DNA of 64,000 nucleotides from Eledone cirrhosa (lineage: Eukaryota), in contig OZ024748.1 in assembly GCA_964016885.1 (NCBI GenBank), forward strand, positions 40,238,001 through 40,302,000, in the 5' to 3' direction. Under the pieces are notes generated by a model. The model saw nothing but the letters and a program-made list of their open reading frames with translations. It had not been told where the DNA came from and searched no databases. How positions within the stretch are numbered: position 1 is the first letter of the stretch; every line of letters begins with the position of its first letter. The position numbers and the translations under genes were made by a program. Positions 9,999 to 64,000 of the stretch are shown here, piece after piece.

Positions 9999-10562
9999 CC
10001 CTTTACCATTTACATTACTCTATATATACTATTGTATTTTCACACTAAAGACTTTACCTCACATAATATCTCATAACATTTATATTACACTATATATACT
10101 ATTATATTTTCACAATAAAGGCTTTACCTCACATAATATCTCACATAACATTTACATTACTCTATATATACTATTGTATTTTTACAGTAAAGGCTTTACC
10201 TCATATAATATCTCACATAACATTTACATTAGTCTATATTTACTATTGTATTTTTACAGTAAAAGCTTTACCTCACATAACATTTACATTACTCTATATA
10301 TACTATTGTATTTTCACAGTAAAGGCTTTACTTTACATAATATCTCTCATAACATTTACATTACTCTATATATACTATTTTATTTTCACAGTAAAGTCTT
10401 TACCTCATATAATTATCTCAAATTATATTGAATCTAAGAGATATGGATATTTATTTTGAGAACAATACTTTAACATCAGTATGAGTGGTAAGTTATGGCC
10501 GGTTTTAACAAAAAGAGGTGAGAGAATTCTGGCCAGATACAGCCGGTTTAAATGCTAAAGGT
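9999..10562 (+). mobile_element. piggyBac-like (TTAA) MITE with ~6 internal 72-bp repeats
   Basis: CTAA|CCCTTTACCATTTA ... TAAATGCTAAAGGT|TTAA; internal unit CATTTACATTACTCTATATATACTATTGTATTTTCACAGTAAAGGCTTTACCTCACATAATATCTCACATAA. Confidence 0.75.
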
Positions 10563-17140: not shown

Positions 17141-19875
17141 TCAAGCATCAATTCCCCCCTCGTCCTTCTGCATATGAAAGTCGGCTGTCCAGGTTGGTGG
17201 TTTGCGACTTCTTTGCGATCTCCGCAGTGTTGGGGCGGCACTTTGGGTTTCCTCTTCCTCGGAGTCCGTTGACACAGTGATTCTACGGACATCCAGGACA
17301 TGACGTGGTACTCCGTCCACGGACACATTGTTCTGGGAATTTACGGCCGTCACCGTTCCCCTACCCATTGAGATGTGCAACGTGCATCTAGGGGCTTAAC
17401 CCAGACTTCTTCGCCCACCTGCACGAATGCACTCTCTCTCCCCACTGGCCGTTGTGGTGGCGTGCACGGGTGCCGCCACTCGTATCTGAATACTGCTCTG
17501 TGTGGCACCGATTCCTCGACCTGTCCCACCCGAGGGGACATGTTGTACCAGAACACTGCCTCCATTGGTGAGATATAGCCCCGCTCCGCCATTGCCTTGA
17601 TCGTCCGGTGGTGTCGCTCCACAATTCCATTCCCGCTCGGCCTGTGCGCTGCTCTGAAGAAATGGTCCACCTGCCATCCATCGAGCATCTCCCTCAGCAC
17701 CTCCGAGCGGAACGCTGCGCTGTTGTCAATCAGCAGTTCGTCCACAGGGTCCCGCTCCAAGAACACCTCTCTCAACGTCCGCATGATTTCCTTGGCCGTT
17801 CCAGTCTTCATCTCCCTCCATATTGCCATCCATCCTGGTCCACAGTCGACCATCGAGAGGTACATTCCGTCGGTAGTGCATTACATCCACCGCCAATCGC
17901 GATCCACCGGGAGGCTTCCCGTTTCATGCACACCCGGGGCGGGATCAATGGACTGACATCGGACGCAGCCTCTAACTACCCTTTGAACACTGTGTCTGTT
18001 AACGTCCGAATCGATTCTCCTGGCTAGGAGCAGGCTCCTATCCACTCCCATGTGGTGCATGTCATGCAATCCTTTCAGATCCGACTCGGTCAGCCGACAC
18101 ACGGCAGCTATCTCATCTTCTACCTCCTCCGGCGTTTCCATCCAGGCTTTCTTCACCCTAGTTAAAACGTCCGCCCTATTTTTCTCTGAGGGCACGAAAA
18201 CTACGCTCAGCCTCAGGTCGAACTCGGTGGCCAGCTCTCTTAAAGTTCCCAGGCGGCGCTTTATCACCATCTCCGCCGCCCCTCTCGTTCGCACTCTTTT
18301 CTCACTGGTGAGCACTGATCTCACCCATCCGAGTACAGTAGCCGAGTCGGTGCGTATCTCGATGCTGCGCAGTCCCCACCTCAGGGCGAGGTTCACGCCT
18401 TTCAACACTGCGTCCAGTTCGGCCACATTGATGTGGTTGCAGTCGTCCTTCTTCCTAAGCCAGGCTGCATCCTCGACCTCAACACCTCCTATCTCCAACG
18501 TGACACCCAGCACTATGCTGCTGGCATCGCACCATACGGTCCCGCTCTGCGATTTGGGAACATACCAGCGTCCCCGCACTGGGTCGTCGGCCTTCACCCT
18601 CCCCACGATCTCCTGCATCATGGTCACTGTCCTCTCTCCCACTCTGTCACTCCAAGTCACCCCTCCCGCTCGTCTCTTGACATAGCTGCATGCCGTCCGG
18701 AGTCACCCAGCAATCGGGTAGTGACCCACCAACTTTCCACACATCAAGAAAAGCTCCCGCCTACTCATACTTGGGCCCAGTTCTGGAATTTCATTTCCCC
18801 TCTGGAATACTAAGATGCCCATCCTGTCTCGCCGTAGCCTAAGTCCCAGCGAGCCTCCTCCCTCCAACGCTTCTGACGGCTTCGCAGCCACTCCATACCC
18901 CTGTAAATGGCTCGTGACCTCCGCCGCCGATATCACAGACTCGTCCACTAGGATGTCGTCAATGTAGGAGTTAGTGGCCCTCTTCATCTTGTCGGCCTTT
19001 CCCAGAATGGTCTTGAGGACCGCCGCCATGATCTTCGGTGCGGAGCTCAGCCCGAAACCGAGCCTGGTCAGGCAATATGTCCAGCCCTTATACCTGACCA
19101 GCTGATACTGCCAGAGCTTCTCATCTATATGCAATTGCAAGTATGCCAACTTTAGATTGCTGAACCCTCCGTCATGCATCTCCACTCACGCAGGGTTTCC
19201 CCACAGACATCCGTGACCTCGCCACCCGTGTGGCATGACACGTGCTCGTTCAGCTCCCGAAAGTCCAGCACCGGCCTCACCTTGTTCTTCATGGGTTGCG
19301 CCACCGCCATTAACGGCAATACTCCGCACTTCACCTCCTCTTTCCAGGGAAGCAGTATGCCCTCCTCAATCCATCTCTCTACCTCTCGCTCCTAATGTTT
19401 CCCTTCAACGTGTGTTGATAGCAGTGTTGGTGGTTCTCCCTTCTAGTACCACTCAACAACCCATCGCTGCCCATCGAACACGGCCTAGAAGTCTTTGTCT
19501 TGCACAGTGTAAGCGGGGTATTTCTCCTCGTGGGCCTTCTGGTTCTCCTGTCGCGTACTCACAGCGCATACCGATGCAGCTCCGCCAAACGACACACCGA
19601 CGTTGTTCACTGACGCCTCCTAGACGGCGAATTGCGTCTATGCAAATAACCACGCCGATCCCATCCACCACGTTGTCAACTACGATGGCAGAAAGCCTTA
19701 TTTTCCTTCCCCGTACCGCTATCTCCACTTCGCTGCGACCTCGGCATTCAATTTTCCTGCCGTCGACTACCCTTATGCTGCTCTTCCCTCTCCACCTCTG
19801 CGCCACCAGTGTCGTCGTACAGCCCGTGTCCACGAGGGCTCGCTGTGGCTTTCCCCTCACTAAGACTTCCACCAC
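17141..19875 (-). pseudogene. pol: Gypsy pol (protease, RT, RNase H, integrase), fragmented
   Basis: ALVDTGC (PR), RPVLDFRELN and YIDD (RT), WCDAS...NVAEL...TDS (RH), H..HH..C..C and IDN...GNGIVER (IN), spread over several frames. Confidence 0.9.
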
Positions 19876-34755: not shown

Positions 34756-34916
34756 CCCTTTAGCATTTAAACTGGCCATAACTGGCTGTTCATACTTATG
34801 TTAAGGTATTGTTCTCAAAATAAATATCAAAATCTCGTAGATTCGATATTATATGAGGCAAAGCCTTTACCATGAAAATACAATAGTATATATAGAGTAA
34901 TGTAAATGATAAAGGG
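34756..34916 (-). mobile_element. piggyBac-like MITE, single-unit form (partial copy at 35452-35620)
   Basis: TTAA|CCCTTTAGCATTTA ... TAAATGATAAAGGG|TTAA with one copy of the 72-bp-type unit. Confidence 0.85.
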
Positions 34917-36544: not shown

Positions 36545-36767
36545 CCCTTTAGCATTTATATTACTCAATATATACTATTGTAATTTTGTGGTAAAGGCTT
36601 TACCTTGCCTAATTATCTCACATAATATCAAACCTATGAGATTTTGATATTATTTATTTTGAGAACAATACCTTAACATCAGTATGAGTGACCAGTTACA
36701 GCTGGTATGAACAGAAAGAGGTGAGAGAATTCTGGCTAGATACGGCCGGTTTAAATGGTAAAAAGGG
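36545..36767 (+). mobile_element. piggyBac-like MITE, single-unit form
   Basis: TTAA|CCCTTTAGCATTTA...TTAAATGGTAAAAAGGG; same body as 9999-10562. Confidence 0.8.
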
Positions 36768-40016: not shown

Positions 40017-40655
40017 TCAAGACTTATGCTTATTATTTAGGTTAGCCAACCTTCTCTGCCTTTTCAACCTCATGTATTCAGCATTGCGGAATTTCCTCAT
40101 TTTTTTTTCAGCTTCTGTTTCATTCTGTATTCTCTCCGCAGCTCTTATTCTCTCCAAAGCAAGACGAGCCTCTCTTTGTTCTTGAGTTTCGTTCACTAAT
40201 CTTTCTGCAGCTCTTAGTCTGATATCATGTATTCTTTTCTTCCTTTGATCATCAGTCTCATTCTTTAATCTTATAGCAGCCCTTTGTCTTAAATCCTCAA
40301 GTCTTTGATTTCTCTGCTCTGGAGTCTCATTAGCAAGTCTTATTGCCATTCTTTGTCTCATGTCTGCAAGTCTTTTTTCTCTTTGTTCTTCAGATTCTTT
40401 CTGCAGTCTATTAGCTGCTCTGTATCTAGCTTGTGCTTTCACCCTCTCCTTTTCTTCACCAACAACCGGGATCAATCTTTTCTCTGGTGTCTTTTTAACT
40501 TGAGATCTTTTTGTACGATGAGTCTCAGCATCTTGAGCTCGTCTTGTTGCAGTTGTATCAGAATTTTGACATGCTCTGTATCTCCTCATATAATCTGCTC
40601 TTGCTGCACGTCGTCTATCTGTTTCTACCGTGTTACCACTATTTTTGTCTTCCAT
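40017..40655 (-). CDS. 212-aa protein with STPR-type 23-residue repeats (putative DNA-binding protein)
   Basis: Intact ORF; tandem 23-aa units ESEEQREKRL..., ETPEQRNQRL..., ETDDQRKKRI..., ETQEQREARL..., ETEAEKKMRK...; units have diverged while keeping the E(T/S)..QR..RL pattern. Confidence 0.72.
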   Translation of the reverse strand: MEDKNSGNTVETDRRRAARADYMRRYRACQNSDTTATRRAQDAETHRTKRSQVKKTPEKRLIPVVGEEKERVKAQARYRAANRLQKESEEQREKRLADMRQRMAIRLANETPEQRNQRLEDLRQRAAIRLKNETDDQRKKRIHDIRLRAAERLVNETQEQREARLALERIRAAERIQNETEAEKKMRKFRNAEYMRLKRQRRLANLNNKHKS

Positions 40656-41954
40656 GACAGAATAAATGTTACTATGGTCTGTTTTTTTTTTTATTTAGAT
40701 CTGTTTTAATGCATTAGCTTCTCCTTTCTTTCCTTTTATAATAAACTGTTCGGGCTTATGAGGTCATATATCATATCTCTAATATATATATATATACAAA
40801 TAGTTGTAAGAAACTCTCAGGAGAGCTGGTCAACAGGTCTTCAAGCGAGTGTTTCAGCCCTTAACTTCTAATATATATATATATATATTTATTTATTTAT
40901 GGTCATATACGAGAGTAAAGCGCTGCCCAAGGCTTCAAGGCCCAAATTTGACCATACTTCCAGAATACAAGAGGCATCAAATTAGTGACCTTTCTTTGGG
41001 TGTTTGTATGAGTTATATATATATATAAATTAGATTTACTGGTCGATGTTCAATATTTTTCTGGGGCCTTAAACAGATTTTCTACCACAATTAACGCTGT
41101 GAAGAACAGCAATTCAGGCGGAGTTAGTAACAAGTAGTCTCCCTTGTTTTTGTGTTAATTGCGTTAAATTGTTTGTTACAGATTGAAAAATAAAATAATT
41201 ATAAAAGTACACGTGGCGTATATTTCATTATAGTTCAATATAAATACATAAATATATATATATATTAACTCTTACTACAATCGTTTACTCTCTTGCTTCA
41301 GTGTTTCCTTCATATATATATATATTTACCCATAACATATATGTTGAGACTTATTTAGGTCAAATATACCGGCAAATATGACGAGACAAGAGTTTTACAT
41401 ATCCACATTTGGTGTTGTGTGTATATAAATGAATATAACTGGTATCTGGAAGATACGTGATTCAATTCCTCATAGCGGCCAATGGCAACTTCTTTTTCCG
41501 TATTTTAAGGGTGTTCACCTTATTTTATAAGCTATCTTTATAGCATCTCTGTGATTGAGCACTTTCTTTATATTTATGTATATACATATATATCTGTTTG
41601 TTTCTCTGCATGAAAGATATATACATAAAGTCTGTTGTGTATATATATATATGTGTGTGAAGATGGAGTTACCTTTAAATAAAAACAAGAGGTTTGTCTA
41701 TAATTTCATCCTTTGTGTCTTTAAACTTATCAACTAAATATAATTATACAGTCTTCACATATTTAGGTAATAAATAACAAATAAATATATATATATATAT
41801 CCTCACGATTTTACACACTTTCGGAATTATACAACAATTCTCCGCTGATGAAGTGAAAACATTCCGTTTAACAGAACCAACATAAAAAACGGTAAATTTG
41901 TTTATATTCGACAACGATCAATTTCAACAGGAAACTGTAAAAATTATTTAACGG

Positions 41955-42545: not shown

Positions 42546-42780
42546 CCCTTTCCATATCAAACCATTCCTGCTTCTGCGATACAAATTTTTTTTTTTAAAA
42601 GAATATATATTTATCTAAACATCTCCCATAATAATTCTATGTTATATTATTCCATCGAATGGAAGCATGATAGCGAGAAAGTTGGTTATTTGACTAAATT
42701 ATTTTAAATTCTTCATTATTTTCAATATTATTTGAAAATCACAGGCAGTGTCTTTCCTTAGAAATATGGTAATGAAAGGG
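42546..42780. mobile_element. piggyBac-like MITE, second family
   Basis: TTAA|CCCTTTC ... GAAAGGG|TTAA. Confidence 0.7.
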
Positions 42781-43458
42781 TTAATGACATAGGTAGTGTC
42801 TTTCATTAGAAATATGGTAATGAAAGGGTTAATGACATAGGCAGTGTCTTTTATTAGAAATATGGTAATGAAAGGGTTAATGACATAGACAGTGTCTTTT
42901 ATTAGAAATATGGTAATGAAAGGGTTAATGACATAGACAGTGTCTTTTATTAGAAATATGGTAATGAAAGGGTTAATGACATAGGCAGTGTCTTTTATTA
43001 GAAATATGGTAATGAAAGGGTTAATGACATAGGCAGTGTCTTTCCTTAGAAATATGGTAATGAAAGGGTTAATGACATAGGTAGTGTCTTTCATTAGAAA
43101 TATGGTAATGAAAGGGTTAATGACATAGACAGTGTCTTTCATCAGAAATATTGTAATGAAAGGGTAATGACATAGACAGTGTCTTACATTAGAAATATGG
43201 TAATGGAAGGGTTAATGACATAAACAGTGTCTTTCATTATGGTAATGAAAGGGTTAATGACATAGACAGTGTCTTTCATTAGAAATATGGTAATGAAAGG
43301 GTTAATGATATAGACAGTGTTTTTCATTAGAAATATTGTAATGAAAGGATTAATGACATAGACAGTGTCTTTCATTAGAAATATGGTAATGAAAGGGTTA
43401 AAGACATAGACAATGACTTTCATTAGAAATATGGTAATGTAAGGGTTAATGACATAGA
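42741..43458. repeat. 48-bp minisatellite made from the MITE right end
   Basis: ~15 copies of CATAGACAGTGTCTTTCATTAGAAATATGGTAATGAAAGGGTTAATGA. Confidence 0.95.
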
Positions 43459-43505
43459 CACACATATACATACATACAGAAACACACAAATACATACATA
43501 CACGT

Positions 43506-46830: not shown

Positions 46831-49295
46831 CTAACAGCTAGGTTTAAAGTTATGGAAAGAGTGCCAGTACCGGTGATGGCACGAGGAAAATGTCTCTGAT
46901 TTTCTATTAAGGAGGTCTAGTTTCGAAAAGATTATAGTATGGGTCTCCAGAAGGCAGAGATTATACAATTTATTCGGTGGTTTATACGATGAGGCCCTAC
47001 CTACTACTTCCCATTGCAGTGTAAATGGTCTATTCCTAGTTTTCAGAGAGGATACGTAGCTAGATAAAGAAGTGGAGCTGGCTAGATTGTGTTTTTTGAA
47101 AGAGTGGAGGTGCGAGTTGTATCTCGTCTTGAAGTTGTTTGAAGTAGAACCTATATATGTTTTAGAGGAGTTGTTTGCGTTGACGGTGCATGAGTAGATG
47201 ATGTCTTTGGTTAAGCAATTATTACCTAAGGGGCAAGTTCTATTAGTTCTACAGTTACATTTATTCTGGGTGTTAGCTTGCCGGTTCCTATGTTGGGAAG
47301 AATTCTGGTTGCTAGGGATAGCACTAGGGTAATGATGTCTATCATTCGTATTGTTATTGATTTCATTAGTGCTATTATCATTATTACTATTATTACTACT
47401 ATTGTTTACAGGTACTAAGTTTACCTCCTGTTGTGTTTTAATTAGTTGGAAATAATTATTAATCTTCCGTTTATTACTACTAGCTATATGGTATGCTATG
47501 TTAGGTGTGGTGGAGTACGATATTTTAATTGTATATTTATTGGTACTTTTTACTGGTATTTTTATTGGTATTTTTATTGGTACTTGTGGCCGGTCGGGAA
47601 GTTTTTTCCTAAGATTGAGAAGAAAGCCTTAGGCAAGCTGGTAGAGACGTTTAGATTGAAAGTGGGATTGAAGAATGTATTAGTTCTCCTTCTATTTTTG
47701 TTTATAGTATTGTTTTTTGAGGTATTTATATCCCTGTTTATATTATTATTGTGGTGTTTACTTTGTGCGAGTTAAGTTTGGTATTAATCTTCGTCCTAGA
47801 GTTATAGTGGCTAGTGTTTTTACTATTTTTCCTCATGGCCATATTATGAGAAATAATGTTGTAACTATGTGATTTTATAGGTAGGAATTCAATCTCATTC
47901 TTATGTCCTGATTTAGCTAAAGCCTCATTATAGTATTGTGAATTATTGTTAAATATGGTTTCATTATATGATAGATTAGAGATTCTATTAGATATTTCTT
48001 TAGTAATAGAATTTAATATGGATTTAGGGTAGTTAGAGTTGGTGTTCACATAAATTAGTTGTTCGTTAGGTTTATGATAGGGTGTGTATATTCTAGAGTC
48101 TAGGCTAAGGGTAGCATCGAGGAAGTTGACGTTTTTAGTGTTTTTATCTAAGGTGATACTTAAATTGAAGTTTTTGAAAATTTTGTGTAACTGTTTCCTA
48201 GTTTTTTCTATATTAAATTTTTTTATAGTCTATAAGAAGAAGCGCATCATCGCGGTATAAACCACCATTGAGGTAGGGTAGGTTCTTATGGATTTCATTA
48301 AGTAGGTATAGGCCCACCAAATCGGTGACCTGCGCCGAGTCACTACATCCCATGGTTATGTCGAAGTTGTTATGCGTATCCTTGCGGATAATTGTTCTTC
48401 AAATGTAATTATGGTTTTTCGGGCCGCAAGTATGACGTCAATTTGGGATCTAGTCAGGTCACTATTGTTCATGGCCATAATTAGAGCCTCATTTAATAGG
48501 CGAAATAGAGGTGTAGTATGAATTGATATCAAATTGTATACATTTTTTATTTTTACACTTTTTAATACCCTTGAACCATTCAAAACCTCACCCGTATTTC
48601 CCCATTGGTTAAGGTATATTTTGTGCTTAAATTGTTGGATGATTTTATCTAATATTTTCTTGCTGATAATACCAATGTCAGACAGGGCAAATCAGTCTAA
48701 TTGAAGGGTTACTAATGAAGTCTTCTTTATGGTCCTTCAGAGAGAATCTTGGGGGATTAGGGGTGTATGGCTGTGTATGTCTCTGAAGTCCTAATTTACT
48801 CACTATATTATGGCCTTCAGTATTTATATCTTCTAGGTTTTTAGTAGTAGTTTTCTTGTAGCTCCTATGCAGTCCCTTATATATAAATTTTCTATAAGTA
48901 TCGTAATCTAAGCTATATATATTATTACTTTTATCTGCATGCACTAGGATTTTTTTTTTATTAAATCCTTTAATAGTGGAGTTAAGGTAGTTTAAGGTGT
49001 TGTTTCTATTATGATGTTTTTTGCATTTTATGTTCTTAACTAGTTCAATTAGATCATTTTCAAAGGAATTTAATAATGTGTTGTGGGGAGGGCTTTTAAA
49101 TGTTTTAAAGCCGTAATTGTCGAAGTTATTCGTATCCCTGTTTTTGTCTGAACGGTTTCTATCGTAATGGAATGTCCTCCATCTCACTCTATTGATAAAC
49201 GAGTTGACACTATTGATCAATAATTTTTCATATATATCTTTAGGTGGTATTGGTATGTTCTTAGTAGAAATAGGAAGGTGATCTTTGATAAGCAT
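46831..49295 (-). pseudogene. PLE RT plus C-terminal GIY-YIG endonuclease ORF, disrupted
   Basis: ADKSNNIY, LKDHKEDF..NPSIRLI, FDITMG.SDSAQVTDLVGLYLL, GLYRDD (~48245-48265), then CNCRTNRTCPLGNNCL.KDIIY...TYIGSTSNNFKTRYNSH (~47110-47265); stops and frameshifts present. Confidence 0.9.
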
Positions 49296-49520
49296 ACTTG
49301 TAATTTAATGTATGTTAGCTCAACTGCATGGAGCAGTAAATAATAATAATACTATTTATAGTGATGTATATAGTATAAACAACTATAAACAGGAAGGTCA
49401 GTAATTTCTTATTACCTTATTACCAGTAAGAGAAATAGCTCAATGTATGAATATCAGTTGTTTTACAGAGCAGGAAAATAAATAAATTATACAATTATCA
49501 AAGTTGTGTTCAAATCATTT

Positions 49521-50469: not shown

Positions 50470-51007
50470 CACATCTATATATTATATATACATACATACA
50501 CACACCTATATGAGCACACACACAAACACACTATGATGATTTCCAAAGGTGTGAGGTCACCTGAATTATTTCAATATTCTAGTCACGCAAATGATGGTCT
50601 TTTCTCTCAACGTTTCCTGTTTGCCAAGAATTGTAAAAGAAAAGAAATGAGTGGAATAGAGAGATATATATTTGACAATTTTAATGGAGAGAGATATATA
50701 TTTGACAGTTTTAAACCTTTATCATTTACATTACTCTATATACACAATTGTATTTTCACAGTAAAGGCTTTACCTCACATAATATCTCACATAACATCTC
50801 GTATACGAGAGACGTGTGTTGACGTGTGTGAACAAGCTCGGCTACCGAGTCGGATTTACTTACTCAAAAGTGAGTTTTGATTAATTTTTTTATACTGTAA
50901 TATACGTTAACCCCTTGCTTTGGTCGTCAAACTTTGAGTTTATTTATTTTCGCCCCTTTTTGGGGCGAATTTTCCAGTTAAAAACTTATTACGGCAAACT
51001 AATAGAA

Positions 51008-52746
51008 ATGGACGGAATTTTCACATCTCATCCTAACGTGAAAGCCTCGCCCCCTAAGAAAGGTGATACAGAGAAGCTAGAAGCACAAGGCTCTAAGTCT
51101 TCCCTCCTCACTTCTGCAAAAGAAACATGGAACACGGAATTAAAAGAGACATTTGTAAAAATGGGTGAAAACCCAGAAAGTCACATAAACGCAGACAAAA
51201 ACAACAACGACAATAACAGCAATAGTCACAACACCAACCAAGGAAAAAATAACGATAACACCAAACAAAGCGAACCCACTACTGGTGCCTCCTTTGCACA
51301 GGCGGTCCGGAAAACACAAACCTGCAAGCAACTGGACATTACAACTCTGAGAGAAAAGATGAAGGAAGCGAAACAGTATGTAACTTTCAAAGAAGGAGGA
51401 GACTTCACAATCACCTCCCCACAAGAAATCAAAAGAGACACGACGCTAAGAACGATATCTTTCAGAACAATTTCCAACATAACAAGGAAACCAACTCAAT
51501 TATCCCAAAAAGAGATTGAGCTGGTCCTAAAAAATGTGTGGAGTGATATATCGTTCATACAAAAAGGGCCACTCTATGGGAATATAACGGTGCTAATGAA
51601 GGATCAATTGACGGCCAGGAAATACTCTGTGGCGCCAATTGTTTCCAAGCTACATACATTTTTTCCCACATATTTAGGGAAAAGAACGCAGAAAATAAGG
51701 GTCTCTGGAATCCGTCCAAATGCATGCATTTCCTGGGTACTAACAGGATTTTTAGAAGACGAGGACGGAATCCTCTCAGTAGGAGAAGTCACCACAGACG
51801 TTTTCGGCGGTTTGAGCGTGGAGGTTCTGGTCCAAATGAGACCAGAACGAATAGCTAGAATACCACAGAGGGTGTCCCTCGATGGAGAAACATTTATATA
51901 TATTTCAGCCGAGGGTAGGAGGCCCATATGTTACTACTGTTCAAGCAGGGGTCATCTAAGGGCTGCTTGTCCTCAATTGACAAAAAAAAGGCTCTTTTGC
52001 CTACACACCACACACCACCACCGCCACCACCACCACCACCACCTCCACCACCACCACCACAACAACAACAAAAACAACACGGAAAAATAACACAAGACAC
52101 GGCCCCACCCAAAACAACTCCCAAAACACACACAAATACAACAAAACCCCAAAATATACCACTACCCGACAGCACGGACGAGGACCCAGCTGAAACGGCA
52201 CCTAGTGACGAAGAGGGGGAACCCTTCCAACCTGTAAAAAGGAAAAAAAGAAAGCACCACTCGAACATAAACGAAACAAACACACAACCACCAACAAAAA
52301 CAAAACAAACAGAACAAACAAAATCCGCCCCACCCCAAAACATAACACATACAACAAAACGTAAGCACACACAAGAACAACAAACAAACACAACACAAAT
52401 AAAACAGTATACATACATTAACACAAATAACAAAGAACTCGTAAAAACAATACACAAAGACCCTTTGGTGGAAACTGAAGGGCAATTCTTTGCAAGCGCG
52501 GCCAACAAACCGCATTTAAAAATGATAAGACTCCCAATGGACACCTATGCAAAACTAAGAGAGAACTTTCCTGAGGACGTGGGGAAAACATGTACTCGAC
52601 CCTATAACCGCGTCCTCTTGAAACGTTTCCCCACCCACACCTCACCAAACACCCCCACTCCACCACAGAACAACACCCCACCAAACAACCCCTCCAATAC
52701 GCCCATGGATATTGTGCAACCTGCTCCTCAGGAGCCGAACAGGTAG
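51008..52746 (+). CDS. ORF1 (gag-like, CCHC knuckle, Pro/Thr-rich tail in the -1 frame)
   Basis: SFAQAV and CYYCSSRGHLRAAC; frame break at the A8 run 51982-51989; the -1 frame stays open to 52746, 21 nt before the ORF2 ATG. Confidence 0.75.
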
Positions 52747-52767
52747 GTCCTTCCTCTTTTAACCAAC

Positions 52768-55700
52768 ATGGCTGATATAAGAGTTGGGTGTCTGAATGTA
52801 CGCAGCCTGGGACTGTCTTGGAAACAAGGCAAACTTTTAAACGATCTCAGGTCGCATAGAATGGATGTAATGGCTATTTGCGAGTCCAGGATCAGCAGCG
52901 AGCACCAACTGGCGCCCCTCTTCGACGACTTTGAAATCTTCGCATCTCTCTGTCAACCGGGGGGTGGGGGTGGAGTTGTCGTTCTGCTGCGAAAACACCT
53001 GGGCCTCGCCATACAGAAGGTGCACCTGGACCCGGAGGGTCGACTGGTGGTTTTAGACGTCGGCAGTAGTGAAAGTGGAGCCCTTAGACTAATAGCTGTG
53101 TACGCCCCTTTTTGGGCAGCACGGCCGGAATACTTCCAACGTCTGGAAACTTTTCTGGGAACGTCCCGCTCCTTGCTTTTAGTGGGGGACTGGAATGGTA
53201 TCCTGGATGCACGTTGGGACTATGTAGGGGCATGTGCCAATAGAGGGGGGTGTAAAAGCCTCAAAAGGTTAATCGGCCGATTTGACCTGGCCGATAGATA
53301 TCGACTAGATTTTCCGACTGTACCACTATGTACGTGGACCAATCGCAGCAGAACATCTAGGTCGTACCTAGATAGGGTCGTAGTTAGAGATAAGGATAGG
53401 GACACATTTAGCAGTCCAAAAATGTTCATGGTTGACTATTCGGATCACAAGTTAGTGACCTGCATAGTCAACCTTGATAGAACCCATAGACAGGGACCCG
53501 GTTACTGGAAGCTGAACTTGTCCTTACCGACATGCAAAGCTTACAGTAAACGGATTAGCACGTTAGTTAAGCAGTGTTTGACAGGGGCAATTGTCAACAA
53601 CAGGTGGTGGAGCTCTCTTAAGAGAGCAATTAGAATAGAATCGATAGGTTTTAGTCAGGAATTAGCAAGGGATAGGAACAAGACGGAAAGGGAATTAGTA
53701 GATAGAGTAGAAGAGGCGATTAGGAGTGGCAATGTAGCCGGCGTGCTGGCATCAAGAATGGCCTTAGACCAGTTCTTTGAGGTGAAGCATGAAGGCTGCG
53801 TTGTCAGGAGTAAAATACGTGCTCTGGGTAATGAGGGAGCCAAAGCTGTGAGCTGGGCCCGAGTGACAGAGGCAAAAAGTGGGAACAAGTCCACGATTCG
53901 GTCTTTGAAGGACTAGGATGGGCGTGTGATCCTTGAACCTGGGCAGATGTGTGCGGCCTTTCAGCGGCACTTTGCAGGGCTGTTCGAGAGGGGCGGCGCG
54001 CCGAGTGAGACTATGGATTTCAATCCATACCTCGACGGTCTGCCGCGCCTCTCGGACGCGGAGGCGAAGTCCTGCGAAAGGACGATTTCAGCTGCTGAGA
54101 TAGGGGCGGCGCTGAGCCAATGCGGCAAACGCAAATCCCCGGGTCTCGATGGTCTACCATACGAGCTATATGTAGCGATGCCGGACTTGTTCTCCGATAT
54201 CGTCGAAGCGGTCTACTGCAACTGGCAGCAGAACGGGAGAATTCCCAGTTCTGTGACCAAGGGCGTAGTTACGCTGGTGAGGAAGGATGAGAACAAGGGG
54301 GATGACATAAGTAACTTCAGGCCCATAACTCTGCTAAATACAGAGTTAAAGATTTTGGCCAAGGTGTTAGCGAAGAGGTTGGCGCTTGTCGTTGGAAACC
54401 TGGTGGGAGAAGCGCAGACATGCGCAATCCATTCACGACAATCTCCACCTTATGCGATACATCATAGAGAGGGTAGGGAATGAACCCGGCTTTGGTGGGG
54501 CCCTGATCAACTTGGATCAATCTAAAGCTTTCGATAGGGTTGACCATCGTTACCTGGATGCGGTGCTCGTGGCGGCAGGCTTCGGACCCCTTTTCAGGGG
54601 TTGGATTGCTGCGATGCACAGCAGCAACGTCTGCTCAAGGGTCAAGGTGAACGGCCACCTCTCGGAGCCGTTCCAAATCATGCGATCCATCCGACAGGGA
54701 TGCCCTCTCTCCTCCCTACTGTATATGCTGGCTCTTGAGCCACTACTGCGGAAGTTGGAGCGGTTGCAGGGCATCCCTTTGGAACCGGGATTGCAGAAAG
54801 CGGCGTCGGCCTACGCCGATGACGTGACAGTAATGGTGTTGAAAACCTCGCAAATCGGTGAGATCGGCACCTTACTGGAGGAATATGAAAGGTTTACAGG
54901 AGCCAAGCTGAACCGGGACAAGTCCGTCGGTTTGCAACTCGGAACATGGAGAGGCAAACCGATGCCCTCCAACGACGTCGTCGGACGCTGGACGGAGGGC
55001 CCGGTGAAGCTGCTTGGGGTCTGGTTCGGACCAGACCTCCAGGTGGAGAAAAACTGGAACGAGGTAACGGCCAGGGTGTTTGCACTCACCCAGAAGTGGG
55101 CCCAGTGCAAACTATCCCTGAAAGGTCGAGCGGAGGTGGCGAATACTTATATAGCATCCGTCATCTACTACCGCTTGACCGTCGTGCCTTGCCCAGTGAA
55201 AAGACTCGCCAAAATGGAGTGCGCGCTGTTCCAATTTCTTTGGAACAAGCGGACCCCTTTGGTGAGGAGATCCATCTGCTGTCAACACCCTTCGAAAGGA
55301 GGGCTGGGGATGCCGTGGCTACAGATGCGTAAACACGCATTAAGGCTACGGCACCTCCAGGTATTCCTCACCGGTCAACCGGTGTGGGCCCCGTTTGTGA
55401 GGCGAGCCTTTCCCAGACTCGTCTCGCTCACCGAGCTGCAATCCTGGGTCAAGCAAAGACCGAGAAAAGTGGGCGACTGGCACATTGAATGTGCCCAGGC
55501 GCTCACGGCCCTCTGGAAAGCGGACCCGGCAATCAGTGGAGACTCCACCTCGACATTCTATAGAGGGCTGGTACGCAGCAGGTGCGACGATGCTCTCGGG
55601 GAAGCTCTAGGCATGGAGGAAGATGAACTGGCCAGTCTGTTCGGTAGGACGTTTGGCCCTGGACCGATGGACAACTTCCAAAAGTCCCTGGGTTGGCAGT

Positions 55701-56194
55701 GCTACCGAGGGGCTCTACCCGTTCGAAACAAGCTCCACAGGCATGGGAGCCTGGGTAGAGATCCTTTGAATAAGATCTGTCCGAGATGCGTGCATGATGA
55801 CGAAACCGTTGCGCACGCATTCGTACACTGCCCAGGCATTGCTGACCTGTGGGGCTATGTGGAACGACTACTGTCGAGGGTGGGACCAATCCGGTTGACC
55901 ACCGAGTCCATTGTCACGATCAAACCGCCTCCCCCTTTCAAAAACGAAGGAGAGGCGGTTTTTCTCTGTGTGATAGCCATGGCTAAAGAAGTTGTATGGT
56001 GGACGAGGCTGAAAGGGCTGAGGTCAGACACCTTTCTCTCAGGCCAACAACTGGTCCCCTTTTTCAAATACCATTTTAAAAGAAGGATCAGAATGGAGAG
56101 AGAGGTGCTCTACCCCAGCAAGTTTTATGAAAGGTGGGTGAAAGTAGGGAGAATGGCCAGAGTGAATGGGTCTTCTCTCTATATCAGCCTGTAG
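52768..56194 (+). pseudogene. ORF2 (APE endonuclease, RT, zinc finger), with one stop and a 10-bp deletion
   Basis: CLNVRSL, GDWN, SYLDR, SDH; SPGLDG, RPITLLN, DQSKAFDRV, QGCPLS, YADD; CPRC..DDETVAHAFVHC. TAG at 53914 where copy 2 has CAG; deletion near 54430. Confidence 0.92.
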
Positions 56195-56430
56195 GTAAAA
56201 GAAGAGGAAAAAGAGGAGACGAGGGAAGCACCTACTCTTTGTGCTCCTGAGGAGAAGGGTTGCACATTTTTTCCGGGGTGTGTGCGACCCATGTTAATGC
56301 CCCCTCCCTATTGAGGACTTCGTTTGTTGTTGTTATTTCATTGTTATATTTTTGTACTCGTTAATTATATGTAAACTTCCCCCCTTGTATCTGTCCCTAC
56401 CTTTTGTGCCCTAGTGGCAAATAAAGAAAC

Positions 56431-56782
56431 CACTCTATATATACTATTGTACTTTCACAGTAAAGGCTTTACCTCACATAATATCTCACATAATATTTAC
56501 ATTACTCTATATATACTATTGTATTTTCACAGTAAAGGCTTTACCTCACATAATATCTCACATAATGTTTACATTACTCTATATATACTATTGTATTTTT
56601 ACAGTAAAGGCTTTACCTCACAATATCTTTCATAACATTTACATTACTCTATATATACTATTGTATTTTCACAGTAAAGGCTTTACCTCACATAATATCT
56701 CACATAACATTTACATTACTCTATATATACTATTGTATTTTCACAGTAAAAGCTTTACCTCACATAATATCTCACATAACAT
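56431..56782 (+). repeat. 72-bp tandem repeat (~5 units) between the two LINEs
   Basis: Same unit as in the MITE at 9999-10562. Confidence 0.95.
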
Positions 56783-59700
56783 CTCGTATACGAGAGACGT
56801 GTGCTGACGTGTGTGAACAAGCTCGGCTACCGAGTTGGATTTACTTACTCAAAAGTGAGTTTTGATTAATTTTTTTATACTGTAATATACGTTAACCCCT
56901 TGCCTTGGTCGTCAAACTTTGAGTTTATTTATTTTCGCTCCTTTTTGGGGCGAATTTTCCAGTTAAAAATTTATTACGGCAAACTGATAGAAATGGACGG
57001 AATTTTCACATCTCATCCTAACGTGAAAGCCACGCCCCCTAAGAAAGGTGATACAGAGAAGCTAGAAGCACAAGGCTCTAAGTCTTCCCTCCTCACTTCT
57101 GCAAAAGAAACATGGAACACGGAATTAAAAGAGACATTTGTAAAAATGGGTGAAAACCCAGAAAGTCACATAAACGCAGACAAAAACAACAATGACAATA
57201 ACAGAAATAGTCACAACCAAGGAAAAAATAACGATAACACCAAACAAAGCGAACCCACTACTGGTGCCTCCTTTGCAAAGGCGGTCCGGAAAACACAGAC
57301 CTGCAAGCAACTGGACATTACAACTCTGAGAGAAAAGATGAAGGAAGCAAAACAGTATGTAACTTTCAAAGAAGGAGGAGACTTCACAATCACCTCACCA
57401 CAAGAAATCAAAAGAGACACGACACTAAGAACGATATCTTTCAGAACAATTTCCAACATAACAAGGAAACCAGCTCAATTATCCCCAAAAGAGATTGAGC
57501 TAGTCCTAAAAAATGTGTGGAGTGATATATCGTTCATACAAAAAGGGCCACTCTATGGGAATATAACGGTGCTAATGAAGGATCAATTGACGGCCAGGAA
57601 ATACTCTGTGGCGCCAATTGTTTCCAAGCTACACACATTTTTCCCCACATATTTGGGGAAAAGAACGCAGAAAATAAGAGTCTCCGGAATCCGGCCAAAT
57701 GCATGCATTTCCTGGGTACTAACAGGATTTTTAGAAGACGAGGACGGAATCCTCTCAGTAGGAGAAGTCACCACAGACGTTTTCGGCGGTTTGGGCGTGG
57801 AGGTTCTGGTCCAAATGAGACCAGAACGAATAGCTAGAATACCACAGAGGGTGTCCCTCAATGGAGAAACATTTATATACATTTCAGCCGAGGGTAGGAG
57901 GCCCATATGTTACTACTATTCAAGCAGGGGTCATCTAAGGGCTGCCTGTCCTCAATTGACAAAAAAAAGGCACTTTTGCCTACACCCCACACACCACCAT
58001 CGCCACCACCTCCACCACCACCACCACCACCACCACCACCACCACCACCACCACAACAGCAACAAAAACAACACGGAAAAATAACACAAGACACGGCCCC
58101 ACCCAAAACAACTCCAAAAACACACACAAACACAATAAAACCCCAAAATACACCACTACCCGACAGCACGGACGAGGACCCAGCTGAAACGGCACCTAGA
58201 GACGAAGAGGGGGGACCCTTGCAACCTGTAAAAAGGAAAAAAAGAAAGCACCACTCGAACATAAACGAAACAAACACACAACCACCAACAAAAACAAAAC
58301 AAACAGAACAAACAAAATCCGCCCCACCCCAAAACATAACGCATACAACAAAACGCAAGCACACACAAGACAACAAACAAACACAACACAAATAAAACAG
58401 TATACATATATTGACACAAATAACAAAGAAGTAGTAAAAACAATACACAAAGACCCTTCGGTGGAAACTGAAGGGCAATTCTTTGCAAGCGCGGCCAACA
58501 AACCGCATTTAAAAATAAGACTCCCAGTGGACACCTATGCAAAACTAAGAGAGAACTTTCCTGAGGACGTGGGGAAAACATGTACTCGAACCTATAACCG
58601 CGTCCTCTTGAAACGTTTCCCCACCCACACCTCACCAAACACCCCCACCCCACCAAACAACCCCTCCAATACGCCCATGGATATTGTGCAACCTGCTCCT
58701 CAGGAGCCGAACAGGTAGGTCCTTCCTCTTTTAACCAACATGGCTGATATAAGAGTTGGGTGTCTGAATGTACGCGGCCTGGGACTGTCTTGGAAACAAG
58801 GCAAACTTTTAAACGATCTCAGTCGCATAGAATGGATGTAATGGCTATTTGCGAGTCCAGGATCAGCAGCGAGCACCAACTGGCGCCCCTCTTCGACGAC
58901 TTTGAGATCTTCGCATCTCTCTGTCAACCGGGGGGTGGGGGTGGAGTTGTCGTTCTGCTGCGAAAACACCTTGGCCTCGCCATACAGAAGGTGCACCTGG
59001 ACCCGGAGGGTCGACTGGTGGTTTTAGACGTCGGCAGTAGTGAAAGTGGAGCCCTTAGACTAATTGCTGTGTACACCCCTTTTTGGGCAGCGCGGCCGGA
59101 CTACTTCCAACGTCTGGAAACTTTTCAGGGAACGTCCCGCTCCTTGCTTTTAGTGGGGGACTGGAATGGTATCCTGGATGCACGTTGGGACTATGTAGGG
59201 GCATGTGCCAATAGAGGGGGGGGGGGTAAAAGCCTCAAAAGGTTAATCGGCCGATTTGACCTGGCCGATAGATATCGACTAGATTTACCACTATGGACGT
59301 GGACCAATCGCAGCAGAACATCTAGGTCGTACCTAGATAGGGTCCTAGTTAGAGATAAGGATAGGGACGCATTTAGCTGTCCAAAAATGTTCATGGTTGA
59401 CTATTCGGATCACAAGTTAGTGACATGCATAGTCAACCTTGATAGAACCCATAGACAGGGACCCGGTTACTGGAAGCTGAACTTGTCCTTACCGACAAGC
59501 AAAGCTTACAGTAAACGGATTAGCACGTTAGTTAAGCAGTGTTTGACAGGGGCAATTGTCAACAACAGGTGGTGGAGCTCTCTTAAGAGAGCAATTAGAA
59601 TAGAATCGATAGGTTTTAGTCAGGAATTAGCAAGGGATAAGAACAAGACGGAAAGGGAATTAGTAGATAGAGTAGAAGAGGCGATTAGGAGTGGCAATGT

Positions 59701-62410
59701 AGCCAGCGTGCTGGCATCAAGAATGGCCTTAGACCAGTTCTTTGATGTGAAGCATGAGGGCTGCGTTGTCAGGAGTAAAATACGTGCTCTGGGTAATGAG
59801 GGAGCCAAAGCTGTTAGCTGGGCCCGAGTGACAGAAGCAAAAAGTGGGAACAAGTCCACGATTCGGTCTTTGAAGGACCAGGATGGGCGTGTGATCCTTG
59901 AACCTGGGCAGATGTGTGTGGCCTTTCAGCGGCACTTTGCACGACTATTCGAGAGGGGCGGCGCGCCGAGTGAGACTATGGATTTCAATCCATACCTCGA
60001 CGGTCTGCCGCGCCTCTCGGACGCGGAGGCGAAGTCCTGCGAAAGGCCGATTTCAGCTGTTGAGATAGGGGCGGCGCTGAGCCAATGCGGCAAACGCAAA
60101 TCCCCGGGGCTCGATGGTCTACCATACGAGCTATATGTAGCGATGCCGGACTTGTTCTCCGATATCCTCGAAGCGGTCTACTGCAACTGGCAGCAGAACG
60201 GGAGAATTCCCAGTTCTGTGACCAACCAAGGGCGTAGTTACGCTGGTGAGGAAGGATGAGAACAAGGGGGATGACATAAGTAACTTCAGGCCCATAACTC
60301 TGCTAAATACAGAGTTAAAGATTTTGGCCAAGGTGTTAGCGAAGAGGTTGGCGCTTGTCGTCGGAAACCTGGTGGGAGAAGCGCAGACATGCGCAATCCC
60401 GTCCAGGTCCATTCACGACAAACTCCACCTTATGCGATACATCATAGAGAGGGTAGGGAATGAACCCGGCTTTGGTGGGTCCCTGATCAACTTGGATCAA
60501 TCTAAAGCTTTCGATAGGGTTGACCATCGTTACCTCGATGCGGTGCTCGTGGCGGAAGGCTTCGGACCCGTTTTCAGGGGTTGGATTGCTGCGATGCACA
60601 GCAGCAACGTCTGCTCAAGGGTCAAGGTGAACGGCCACCTCTCGGAGCCGTTCCAAATCATGCGATCCATCCGACAGAGATGCCCTCTCTCCTCCCTTCT
60701 GTATGTGCTGGCTCTTGAGCTACTACTGCGGAAGTTGGAGCGGTTGCAGGGCATCCCTTTGGAACCGGGATTGCAGAAAGCGGCGTCGGCCTACGCCGAT
60801 GACGTGACAGTAATGGTGTTGAAAACCTCGCAAATCGGTGAGATCGGCACCTTGCTGGAGGAATATGAAAGGTTTACAGGAGCGAAGCTGAACCGGGACA
60901 AGTCCGTCGGTTTGCAACTCGGAACATGGAGTGGCAAACCGATTCCCTCCAACGACGTCGTCGGACGCTGGACGGAGGGCCCGGTGAAGCTGCTTGGGGT
61001 CTGGTTCGGACCAGACCTCCAGGTGGAGAAAAACTGGAACGAGGTAACGGCCAGGGTGTTTGCACTCACCCAGAAGTGGGCCCAGTGCAAACTATCCCTG
61101 AAAGGTCGAGCGGAGGTGGCGAATACTTATATAGCATCCGTCATCTACTACCGCTTGACCGTCGTGCCTTGCCCAGTGAAAAGACTCGCCAAAATGGAGT
61201 GCGCGCTGTTCCAATTTCTTTGGAACAAGCGGACCCCTTTGGTGAGGAGATCCATCTGCTGTCAACACCCTTCGAAAGGAGGGCTGGGGATGCCGTGGCT
61301 ACAGATGCGTAAACACGCATTAAGGCTACGGCACCTCCAGGTATTCCTCACCGGTCAACCGGTGTGGGCCCCGTTTGTGAGGCGAGCCTTTCCCAGACTC
61401 GTCTCGCTCACCGAGCTGCAATCCTGGGTCAAGCAAAGACCGAGAAAAGTGGGCGACTGGCACATTGAATGTGCCCAGGCGCTCACGGCCCTCTGGAAAG
61501 CGGACCCGGCAATCAGTGGAGACTCCACCTCGACATTCTATAGAGGGTATGGTACGCAGCAGGTGCGACGATGCTCTCGGAGAAGCTCTAGGCATGGAGG
61601 AAGATGAACTGGCCAGTCTGTTCGGTAGGACGTTTGGCCCTGGACCAATGGACAACTTCCAAAAGTCCCTGGCTTGGCAGTGCTACCGAAGGGGCTCTAC
61701 CCGTTCGAGACAAGCTCCACAGGCATGGGAGCCTGGGTAGGGATCCTTTGAATAAGATCTGTCCGAGATGCGTGCATGACGACGAAACCGTTGCGCACGC
61801 ATTCGTACACTGCCAAGGCATTGCTGACCTGTGGGGCTATGTGGAACGACTACTGTCGAGGGTGGCACCAATCCGGTTGACCACCGAGTCCATTGTCACG
61901 ATCAAACCGCCTCCCCCTTTCAAAAACGAAGGAGAGGCGGTTTTTCTCTGTGTGATAGCCATGGCTAAAGAAGTTGTATGGTGGACGAGGCTGAAAGGGC
62001 TGAGGTCAGACACCTTTCTCTCCGGCCAACAACTGGTCCCCTTTTTCAAATACCATTTTAAAAGAAGGATCAGAATGGAGAGAGAGGTGCTCTACCCCAG
62101 CAAGTTTTATGAAAGGTGGGTGAAAGTAGGGAGAATGGCCAGAGTGAATGGGTCTTCTCTCTATATCAGCCTGTAGGTGAAAGAAGAGGAAAAAGAGGAG
62201 ACGAGGGAAGCACCTACTCTTTGTGCTCCTGAGGAGAAGGGTTGCACATTTTTTCCGGGGTGTGTGCGACCCATGTTAATGCCCCCTCCCTATTGAAGAC
62301 TTCGTTTGTTGTTGTTATTTCATTGTTATATTTTTGTACTTGTTAATTATATGTAAACTTCCCCCTTGTATCTGTCCCTACCTTTTGTGCCCTGGTGGCA
62401 AATAAAGAAA
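56783..62410 (+). mobile_element. Tx1/L1-clade non-LTR retrotransposon, copy 2, full length
   Basis: Highly similar to copy 1, with the same junctions; different ORF2 lesions (frameshifts near 58822, 60225, 61548, 61689). Confidence 0.92.
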
Positions 62411-62411
62411 T

Positions 62412-63455
62412 CACTCTATATATACTATTGTATTTTCACAGTAATCTCACATAACATTTATATTACACTATATATACTATTGTATTTCCACAGTAAAGGC
62501 TTCACCTCACATAATATCTCACATAACATTTACATTACTCTATTGTATTTTCACAGTAAAAGCTTTCCCTCACATAATATCTCACATAACATTTACATTA
62601 CTCTATATATACTATTGTATTTTCATGGTAAAGGCTTTACCTCACACAATATCTCATATAACATTTACATTACACTATATATACTATTGTATTTTCATAG
62701 TAAAGACTTTACCTCACATAATATCTCACATAACGTTTACATTACTCTATATATACTATTGTATTTTCACAGTAAAGGCTTTACCTCACATAATATCTCA
62801 CATAACATTTACATTACACTATATTTACTATTGTATTTTCATAGTAAAGGCTTTACCTCACATAATATCTCATATAACATTTACATTACTCTATATATAC
62901 TATTGTATTTTCACAGTAAAGGCTTTACCTCACATAATATCTCACATAACATTTACATTACACTATATTTACTATTGTATTTTCATAGTAAAGGCTTTAC
63001 CTCACATAATATCTCACATAACATTTACATTACTCTATATATACTATTGTATTTTCACAGTAAAGGCTTTACCTCACATAATATCTCACATAATATTTAC
63101 ATTACACTATATTTACTATTGTATTTTCATAGTAAAGGCTTTACCTCACATAATATCTCATATAACATTTACATTACTCTATATATACTATTGTATTTTC
63201 ACAGTAAAGGCTTTACCTCACATAATATCTCACATAACATTTACATTACTCTATATATACTATTGTATTTTCACAGTAAAGGCTTTACCTCACATAATAT
63301 CTCACATAACATTTACATTACTCTATATATACTATTGTATTTTCACAGTAAAGGCTTTACCTCACATAATATCTCACATAACATTTAATTACTCTATATA
63401 TACTATTGTATTTTTTACAGTAAAGGCTTTACCTCACATAATATCTCACATAATA
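62412..63455 (+). repeat. 72-bp tandem repeat (~14-15 units)
   Basis: Gives 24-aa periodic spurious ORFs; same unit as above. Confidence 0.96.
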
Positions 63456-64000
63456 CTGAATTTATGAAATTTTGATATTACATACTTTGAGAACAATACC
63501 TTAACATTAGTGGCCCGTTACAACCAGTTTGAACAGAAAGAGGTGAGAGATTTCTGGCCGGCTTCGGCCAGTTTAAATAAATTCAGCTAAAAGGAATTAC
63601 AGAGTCTACACCATTTTTACAAACCAGCTATATAATGGTTGTTTGTATTGTATATAGGAGGTGGCAAATTGGCAGAGTCATTAGAATGTAAGGTAGAATA
63701 TTTTACAGTATTTGTTCCAGCTTTCTGAGTTCAAATACCACTGACGTTAACTTTGCCTTTTATCCTTTTGAGGTTGATAAAAAGAAGTACCAGTCTAGTA
63801 CTGGGGTCAGTTCTTCCCCTATGTTTCTTTCTCACTCTCTATCCTTCTCTGGAAGAAATCTGCTGTGTTTAGAACGTCCTGTGGTAGTGCACCAGAGCAC
63901 TATTTACAATAATTTTCATGCCTTTCATCCTTACGGGGTCAATAAAATAAAGTACCAGTAATACACTGGTTAATTACTGGCCTTGTGCCAAAAGTAGAAA

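Follow-up and report, generated by a model that had tools for sequence, protein, structure and literature searches.

Tx1L, a long interspersed nuclear element (LINE) of Xenopus laevis, enters a site in the internal tandem repeat of another element, Tx1D, and leaves a fixed target-site duplication (TSD) of about 23 bp. Published work describes Tx1D, the target of Tx1L (PMC4494074, PMC1950540, PMC6719617), as a nonautonomous piggyBac (PMC4494074). In this work, we analysed a similar association in Eledone cirrhosa, starting from a stretch of 64,000 nucleotides (NCBI GenBank assembly GCA_964016885.1, contig OZ024748.1, positions 40,238,001 to 40,302,000 of the forward strand; hereafter the window) in which two LINE copies, A and B, lie in an array of the 72-bp internal repeat of a miniature inverted-repeat transposable element (MITE). 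Sequence comparison points to a LINE family that is young and likely belongs to the Tx1 clade. It sits at CATT^ACTCTAT of the 72-bp repeat of a piggyBac MITE; its apurinic/apyrimidinic endonuclease (APE) likely nicks there, and its RNA likely begins some 25-30 nt upstream, within the MITE.

Targets are described as changing within the Tx1 clade, Tx1-Mar being found in a Mariner, Tx1-9_AMi in Harbingers and Kibi/Koshi in microsatellites, and the crocodilian families are presented as old (85-87 % to consensus) and looser in their preference (PMC4494074). Regarding the 5' join, full-length copies of the melanogaster-type R1A are reported to carry a precise 9-bp deletion and truncated ones TSDs, and a transcript with 6-27 nt of upstream target has been proposed (PMC2718515, Stage and Eickbush 2009). 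For R2 elements with ribozymes like that of hepatitis delta virus (HDV), cleavage is placed within 28S, as far as 36 nt upstream; a 7-bp deletion is uniform in springtail R2, uniform 5' junctions are explained by cDNA annealing, and the 5' RNA structure includes bases derived from the target (PMC3774820).

Target site of the LINE family

Both window LINEs (Table 1) begin directly after CTCACATAACAT, with a period of 5985 bp, and end in AATAAAGAAA(C/T)C followed by ACTCTATATATAC. At both, the TTACATT of the 72-bp unit is absent, and neither copy has a poly(A) or a visible TSD. The earlier note had placed the two at an identical site of the unit, and the junction coordinates bear this out. One 72-bp unit precedes A, 4.9 separate A from B and about 14 follow B. 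The array is bounded, as had also been proposed, by the ends of a TTAA MITE that match the short empty copies of the window (161-564 bp), with the correction that the ends of this host copy are themselves damaged: the left one reads TTAA-ACCTTT, not TTAA-CCCTTT, and the right terminal inverted repeat (TIR) is interrupted by 7 nt, lacks an intact TTAA and reaches about 63594.

Site-specific parasitism of the MITE by the LINE, until then a suggestion from two copies, was upheld by the flanks of the family throughout the genome, where the same MITE site recurs and 5'-truncated copies of different lengths are included. A 27-nt pattern of the 3' end gave 344 exact genome matches, of which 332 continue with two bases and ACTCTA; the reversed-pattern controls gave none in the genome, so that the junction matches are not due to chance. 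One sequence type is thus found in 332 of 344 flanks, well beyond the >20 % by which Kojima defines target preference. Six of the 12 remaining 3' ends were inspected and proved to be small target variants (L151, L200) or sister families (L187, L188, L190, L199). Allowing one mismatch brings the number of 3' junctions to 368, and a 24-nt 5' untranslated region (UTR) pattern has 291 matches, which, set against the 3' count, indicates that most copies are full length. The family is young and comprises about 350-370 young copies, and as 33,583 exact empty sites occur in the genome without a LINE, about 1 % of the sites are filled.

A query internal to open reading frame (ORF) 2 was chosen to avoid selection by the junction: among the first 30 of its 40 matches, which include the window's copy, all 30 end at the site, one of them minus 12 nt of the 3' end. 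At the other extremity, 30 of 30 5' UTR matches are preceded by CTCACATAACAT, and among the pooled full-length copies 114 of 119 have the exact upstream 12-mer, the other five showing 1-2 substitutions. In 60 fetched 10-kb stretches, which are the best-scoring ones and hence biased to young copies, 59 main copies reach the 5' end. The full-length 5' junction was also seen, with no differences, in deep contigs of the three runs of one sample; these may have served as a source of the assembly and were not counted. Altogether, that insertions are specific to CATT^ACTCTAT of the MITE unit leaves hardly any room for doubt.

On the largest contigs, copies gather near the ends: contig C1 (443 Mb) has 27 listed copies, each within its first 31 Mb or its last 12 Mb, and the mid-contig matches that were checked on C2 and C3 belong to sister families. 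Runs of 5-6 copies at a spacing of about 5.7-7 kb each occupy one array, at C1:4.22-4.26 Mb, C10:40.72-40.75 Mb and C10:41.38-41.43 Mb, and on C10 three forward copies face three reverse ones, perhaps through an inverted duplication. Since a tandem array offers many sites, one MITE can gather several LINEs, as in the window.

The 5' junction and a putative RNA leader

The junction had at first been described as a 7-bp replacement without TSD. This holds for the full-length copies, whereas truncated ones show short duplications. At the 3' side, the nine 5'-truncated copies that have MITE sequence upstream all use this site, and each breaks off at a point of its own. Six of them keep TTACATT and repeat part of the downstream target, i.e. 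2 nt in L193, 6 in L198, 9 in L186, 10-13 in L255, 15-17 in L294 and 27 in L242. A 65-bp TSD hidden by the tandem period was considered for full-length copies and rejected, because, of 22 variants private to the downstream unit, none is found upstream.

The sequence just upstream of full-length copies is homogenised. Over the last 25 nt before their 5' ends (127 of 130 junctions parsed, L141 excluded), departures from the reference unit number 16 in 3114, against 434 in 18854 for other units (p = 6e-14); at -65 to -30 they number 147 in 4520, against 953 in 28611, i.e. background. Where a variant is locally fixed, the abutting unit has the local base in 0 of 8 cases at -25 to -1 (control 46 of 65) and in 35 of 39 at -65 to -30. 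Among full-length 5' ends, 130 of 162 are preceded by the perfect 25-mer; of the empty sites 854 of 2036 have it, and of the truncated copies 1 of 7, where L147 and L291 were omitted as their break lies inside the 25-mer.

Selection of perfect units would likewise raise the share of perfect 25-mers. This would suit a rival explanation that accepts the site specificity but does without a leader on the RNA. Recognition by the endonuclease would then extend over a long perfect sequence upstream, and a top-strand cut placed 7 nt upstream of the first nick would produce a true 7-bp deletion at every insertion. L147, 5'-truncated yet joined exactly at ACAT with a microhomology of at most one base, fits such a cut, and a top-strand cut 9 bp upstream has been proposed for R1A (PMC2718515); a cut at -7 may also coexist with a leader. 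Against it, only one in seven truncated copies has the perfect 25-mer, and L193 inserted where the 25-mer is absent. The unit abutting L123 has two reference bases that occur together in none of the 15 other scored units, while five local variants are kept further up. L141, although the array around it is made of 60 43-bp units, carries two 72-bp units at the LINE 5' end. Finally, the six truncated copies listed above retain TTACATT intact. We therefore regard direct deletion as improbable, and consider it likely from these comparisons that the RNA has its 5' end within the target, about 26-30 nt upstream and now and then further, with the cDNA annealing to the target. The pattern fits the 5' joining of R1A and R2, i.e. 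uniform full-length junctions, variable truncated ones with duplications and target carried to atypical sites.

Site and strand of insertion are established by the flanks; beyond these, integration with a target-derived leader might proceed as follows. Reverse transcription would be primed by a nick in the bottom strand, at CATT^ACTC or immediately 3' of it, in line with the established chemistry of target-primed reverse transcription, and the top strand would be cut variably downstream (overlaps of 2-17 nt in truncated copies), possibly at -7. A full-length cDNA would end in a copy of CCTCACATAATATCTCACATAACAT, pair with the upstream unit, overwrite its local variants and drop TTACATT. The 7-nt loss, earlier called a replacement, would then likely be inherited from the source copy through the target-derived leader. 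The last two LINE bases change from TT, as in the target, to TC to CC from older to younger copies (2.13 %, 1.51 % and 0.25 %), a series suggesting that bases formerly derived from the target may now be inherited via the RNA, and that the nick would lie at or 3' of CATT^ACTC.

Several observations weigh against this reading. Three truncated copies lack a duplication (L247 at -1, L147 at exactly -7 and L291 at about -24), and L147, L242 and L291 may once have been full-length and have suffered deletions afterwards. The truncated copies are few (nine); in six further 5'-incomplete rows the upstream sequence is unrelated or rearranged, with 3' ends at the site, and of the other such rows three turned out to be full-length copies and one an element of a sister family. 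No homogenisation is seen at position -24 (7 of 124), perhaps because the source copy was a variant or because the leader is shorter. In addition, units within one array are not independent, which makes the p-values optimistic.

Independence of the insertions, clade and host element

One or a few LINE insertions may instead have spread as a MITE+LINE composite, as a DNA transposon or by unequal exchange, A and B then being a single insertion duplicated with the 5985-bp period, an alternative that the earlier note had raised. Clusters of 3-6 copies at a spacing of about 5.7-6.3 kb would suit it. Yet the MITE right ends visible at 18 loci differ by a median of 17.5 %, and their LINEs by 0.55 %; in 35 pairs with LINEs less than 0.3 % apart, the smallest MITE-end difference is 6.6 %, and the two divergences are uncorrelated (Spearman 0.11, p = 0.17). 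The MITE ends being far more diverged than the LINEs, a composite moving as one piece cannot account for this pattern; the damaged MITE ends of the window likewise speak against it. Diverged MITE ends and truncated copies of differing lengths at one site together imply independent insertions. Arrays further carry locus-specific variants on both sides of the LINE. Spread of a composite is thus largely refuted for the family, and we give it very little credence.

As for A and B themselves, they show 108 differences over 5596 aligned bases. B ranks only 90th of 110 copies by distance from A, the two differ at 32 subfamily-informative sites, each allele being found in at least three other copies, and the branch separating them has an SH-aLRT support of 95. 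Duplication of a single insertion is therefore unlikely, and B is far from being the nearest copy to A; sisterhood of the two nevertheless withstood the approximately unbiased (AU) test (p = 0.19). On the same side, A and B share six rare states, four of them in the ORF2 region, a level matched by 5 of 861 older-copy pairs (top 5 of 861). A and B are best explained as two separate insertions that came from different source lineages and later exchanged some sequence by gene conversion; within clusters, duplication may account for some copies. That the 72-bp units are the LINE's own transcript ends, carried as head and tail by an insertion that is not sequence-specific, would agree with the few copies having MITE units on one side only (L104, L140), but is refuted and scarcely credible, because local variants appear in the downstream units from roughly the ninth base, and these units run on to a MITE right end peculiar to each locus, the exact empty sites bear no LINE, and L141 and L193 use the same site in other MITE layouts.

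In both window LINEs, ORFs are frameshifted. ORF1 of A has one frameshift and a CCHC knuckle, and its ORF2, with APE, reverse transcriptase (RT) and zinc-binding parts, is split into three pieces. An unbroken natural copy, L118, encodes an ORF1 of 580 aa and an ORF2 of 1145 aa, and an open ORF2 frame of 1152 codons is found in many copies. PF03372 and PF00078 were detected in L118 over the cut-off, PF13966 at 28.6 bits, and PF00098 in ORF1 weakly (E = 0.007, under the cut-off). The architecture is that of the Tx1 clade, i.e. APE, RT and a C-terminal zinc-binding region in ORF2 and a separate ORF1 with a CCHC knuckle (the weak match). With phmmer, ORF2 scored 295-318 bits to proteins named YTX2 or transposon TX1 149 kDa, 184 bits to human L1 ORF2p and 59-85 bits to R2; identity to Tx1-named ORF2 proteins is about 28-32 %, and the nearest named protein relative is from the cephalopod Argonauta hians. 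The protein cluster look-up returned no Tx1 names. The family very probably belongs to the Tx1 clade, an assignment based on similarity scores and architecture. A search of the literature outside Repbase and subscription journals, where the family may be catalogued, found no description of it or of a target-derived leader in Tx1 elements. A paper on Octopus vulgaris repeats (PMC13282606) lists recent L1-Tx1 and piggyBac families in a table.

Sister families are present in the genome, with 85-89 % identity in the RT and 65-83 % in the endonuclease. Their 3' ends read AATAAAGAAA and continue with TCTATC/TATATC repeats (7 of 7 distinct ends in the loci covered), and in one such family 13 of 13 5' ends follow (TATC)n-type repeats. 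Specificity may have shifted from a (TATC)n-microsatellite target, given that ACTCTATATA resembles TCTATCTA. Related Tx1-type families also occur head to tail, with short (TATC)n tracts between them (L187, L188, L190, L311-L323).

Folding predicts pairing between the element's first bases and its own upstream MITE target (z of -2.4 and -2.9; 3-4 of 200 shuffles equal); for the sister copies, pairing with the upstream TATC microsatellite is predicted in 12 of 13. The motif AGACG at +13 is shared with the sister family, where it is conserved. An Rfam scan of 50600-51300 revealed no known ribozyme (best E 0.77, on the minus strand, far below the cut-off), and a simple descriptor search at the 5' end yielded no HDV, hammerhead or twister core. 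A promoter resembling the downstream promoter element, with its +28 spacing, was rejected and kept as a lead, since the start would fall at -15, shorter than the homogenised tract. That the 5' end is defined by an undescribed RNA element, possibly self-cleaving and half built from the target through pairing of the first 20-40 nt with its own upstream target, is a doubtful though conceivable reading of these folds. If it were true, a change of target would need endonuclease and RNA 5' end to change together, and the family would be a compact APE element with near-exclusive, mostly full-length and precise insertion.

The host MITE is a non-autonomous piggyBac-type element. At many loci its left end reads TTAA-CCCTTTAGCATT and its right end ...AATGCTAAAGGG-TTAA, the TIRs beginning with CCC. 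A Pfam search with PF13843 found piggyBac transposases in the genome, among them an autonomous family of 2.58 kb with an open frame of 561 codons (561 aa), seen at about 17 of 30 loci. Its ends are TTAA-CCCTTTAGCATTCACATT and TTAA-CCCTTTAGCGTTCAAA, with the shared form TTAA-CCCTTTAGC(A/G)TTCA, and the MITE left end (the window's copy at 36541) is identical to this terminus at 20 of 22 positions, the likeness stopping at the terminal repeat. The first target site lies 18 nt inside the MITE left end and is multiplied by the tandem unit. In the autonomous 2.58-kb element, no stretch lies within 3 mismatches of the 13-nt target, so that the LINE strikes the non-autonomous element and spares the transposase gene. 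The autonomous copies (L262-L290, e.g. L266:973-3547) look young, several with the frame open, and are a candidate mobiliser of the MITE. A second piggyBac family, with ends TTAA-CCCTTTCGTTACC, is also present. The array of L141 (C20:1-8845) stands at a contig start and consists of at least 60 43-bp units built from the MITE left end.

Elsewhere in the window, a 48-bp tandem array (42746-43460, 15 copies) has a unit containing AAGGGTTAA, which resembles a piggyBac end, and a 310-bp tandem repeat (7-2054) comprises 6.6 copies at 99 % identity. Within the array downstream of B, the 72-bp unit has a stop-free frame that yields a 280-aa repeat ORF (62625-63467, + strand), most likely incidental. 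By eye, frames at 46831-47628 and 48678-49304 on the minus strand resemble pieces of a Penelope-like element (GIY-YIG and RT-upstream), the latter giving nothing significant with Pfam; a 273-aa frame (17881-18702, minus strand) resembles RNase H and integrase zinc-binding parts of a long terminal repeat retrotransposon; and a 225-aa frame with charged repeats (40017-40694, minus strand) resembles the N-terminus of Helitron proteins.

Table 1. Coordinates of the two LINEs and of MITE sequences in the window
Feature	Position	Strand	Details
Empty MITE	9999-10562	+	about 6 units, 564 bp
Short empty MITE	34756-34916	-	between TTAA sites, 161 bp
Short empty MITE	36545-36767	+	one unit
Host MITE left end and one 72-bp unit	50715-50797	+	follows TTAA 50711-50714; first base mutated; cut after ...CATAACAT
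Target-derived stretch before A, putative 5' leader of the LINE RNA	50773-50797	+	25 nt; homogenised across copies; pairs with the LINE's first 40 nt in predicted folds
LINE copy A	50798-56431	+	5' UTR 50798-51007; ORF1 51008-52746; ORF2 52768-56194; 3' UTR ending AATAAAGAAACC
MITE internal 72-bp repeat between the LINEs	56432-56782	+	4.9 units; 56758-56782, putative leader of B
LINE copy B	56783-62412	+	older subfamily, 1.9 % from A; broken ORFs; ends AATAAAGAAATC
72-bp repeat after B	62413-63453	+	about 14 units; empty target sites CATT^ACTCTAT at every unit boundary
Host MITE right unique part and degenerate right TIR	63454-63594	+	76-84 % to right ends of the window's short copies

Comparison with known systems

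The target type and the likely joining mechanism each have precedents; here the two would come together in one family, and the principle is unchanged. For the question of how site-specific LINEs complete their integration, the family is natural material of unusual clarity: because local variants mark the dispersed target repeat, the overwritten 5' tract can be mapped (about 25-30 nt), unlike with rDNA targets. The target has probably shifted recently from microsatellite to transposon between families, which provides a tractable pair for studying APE specificity, and the many open frames make the family directly testable.

The analogy with Xenopus Tx1L is closer than the earlier note knew, as the MITE proves to be piggyBac-type, like Tx1D (so described in PMC4494074). 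Like Tx1L with Tx1D, the family is an APE-type two-ORF LINE that inserts sequence-specifically at one site of a nonautonomous piggyBac; unlike Tx1L, it lives in a different host lineage, its target is unrelated and its full-length copies show a 7-nt loss. As its closest relatives sit in microsatellites, the piggyBac target is probably convergent with that of Tx1L, i.e. of independent origin. In contrast with the crocodilian Tx1 families, it is young, with many open ORF2 frames and a nearly exclusive target.

R1A is likewise an APE element with a precise target deletion in full-length copies (9 bp, against 7 bp here) and TSDs in truncated ones, but belongs to the R1 clade and targets 28S rDNA, whereas the target here is a transposon repeat dispersed at thousands of loci. 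R2 shares the uniform 5' junctions and differs by its restriction-like endonuclease and by an HDV-like ribozyme core, which was not found here. By analogy, the family would thus act like Tx1L in its choice of target and like R1A, or some R2, in its 5' joining.

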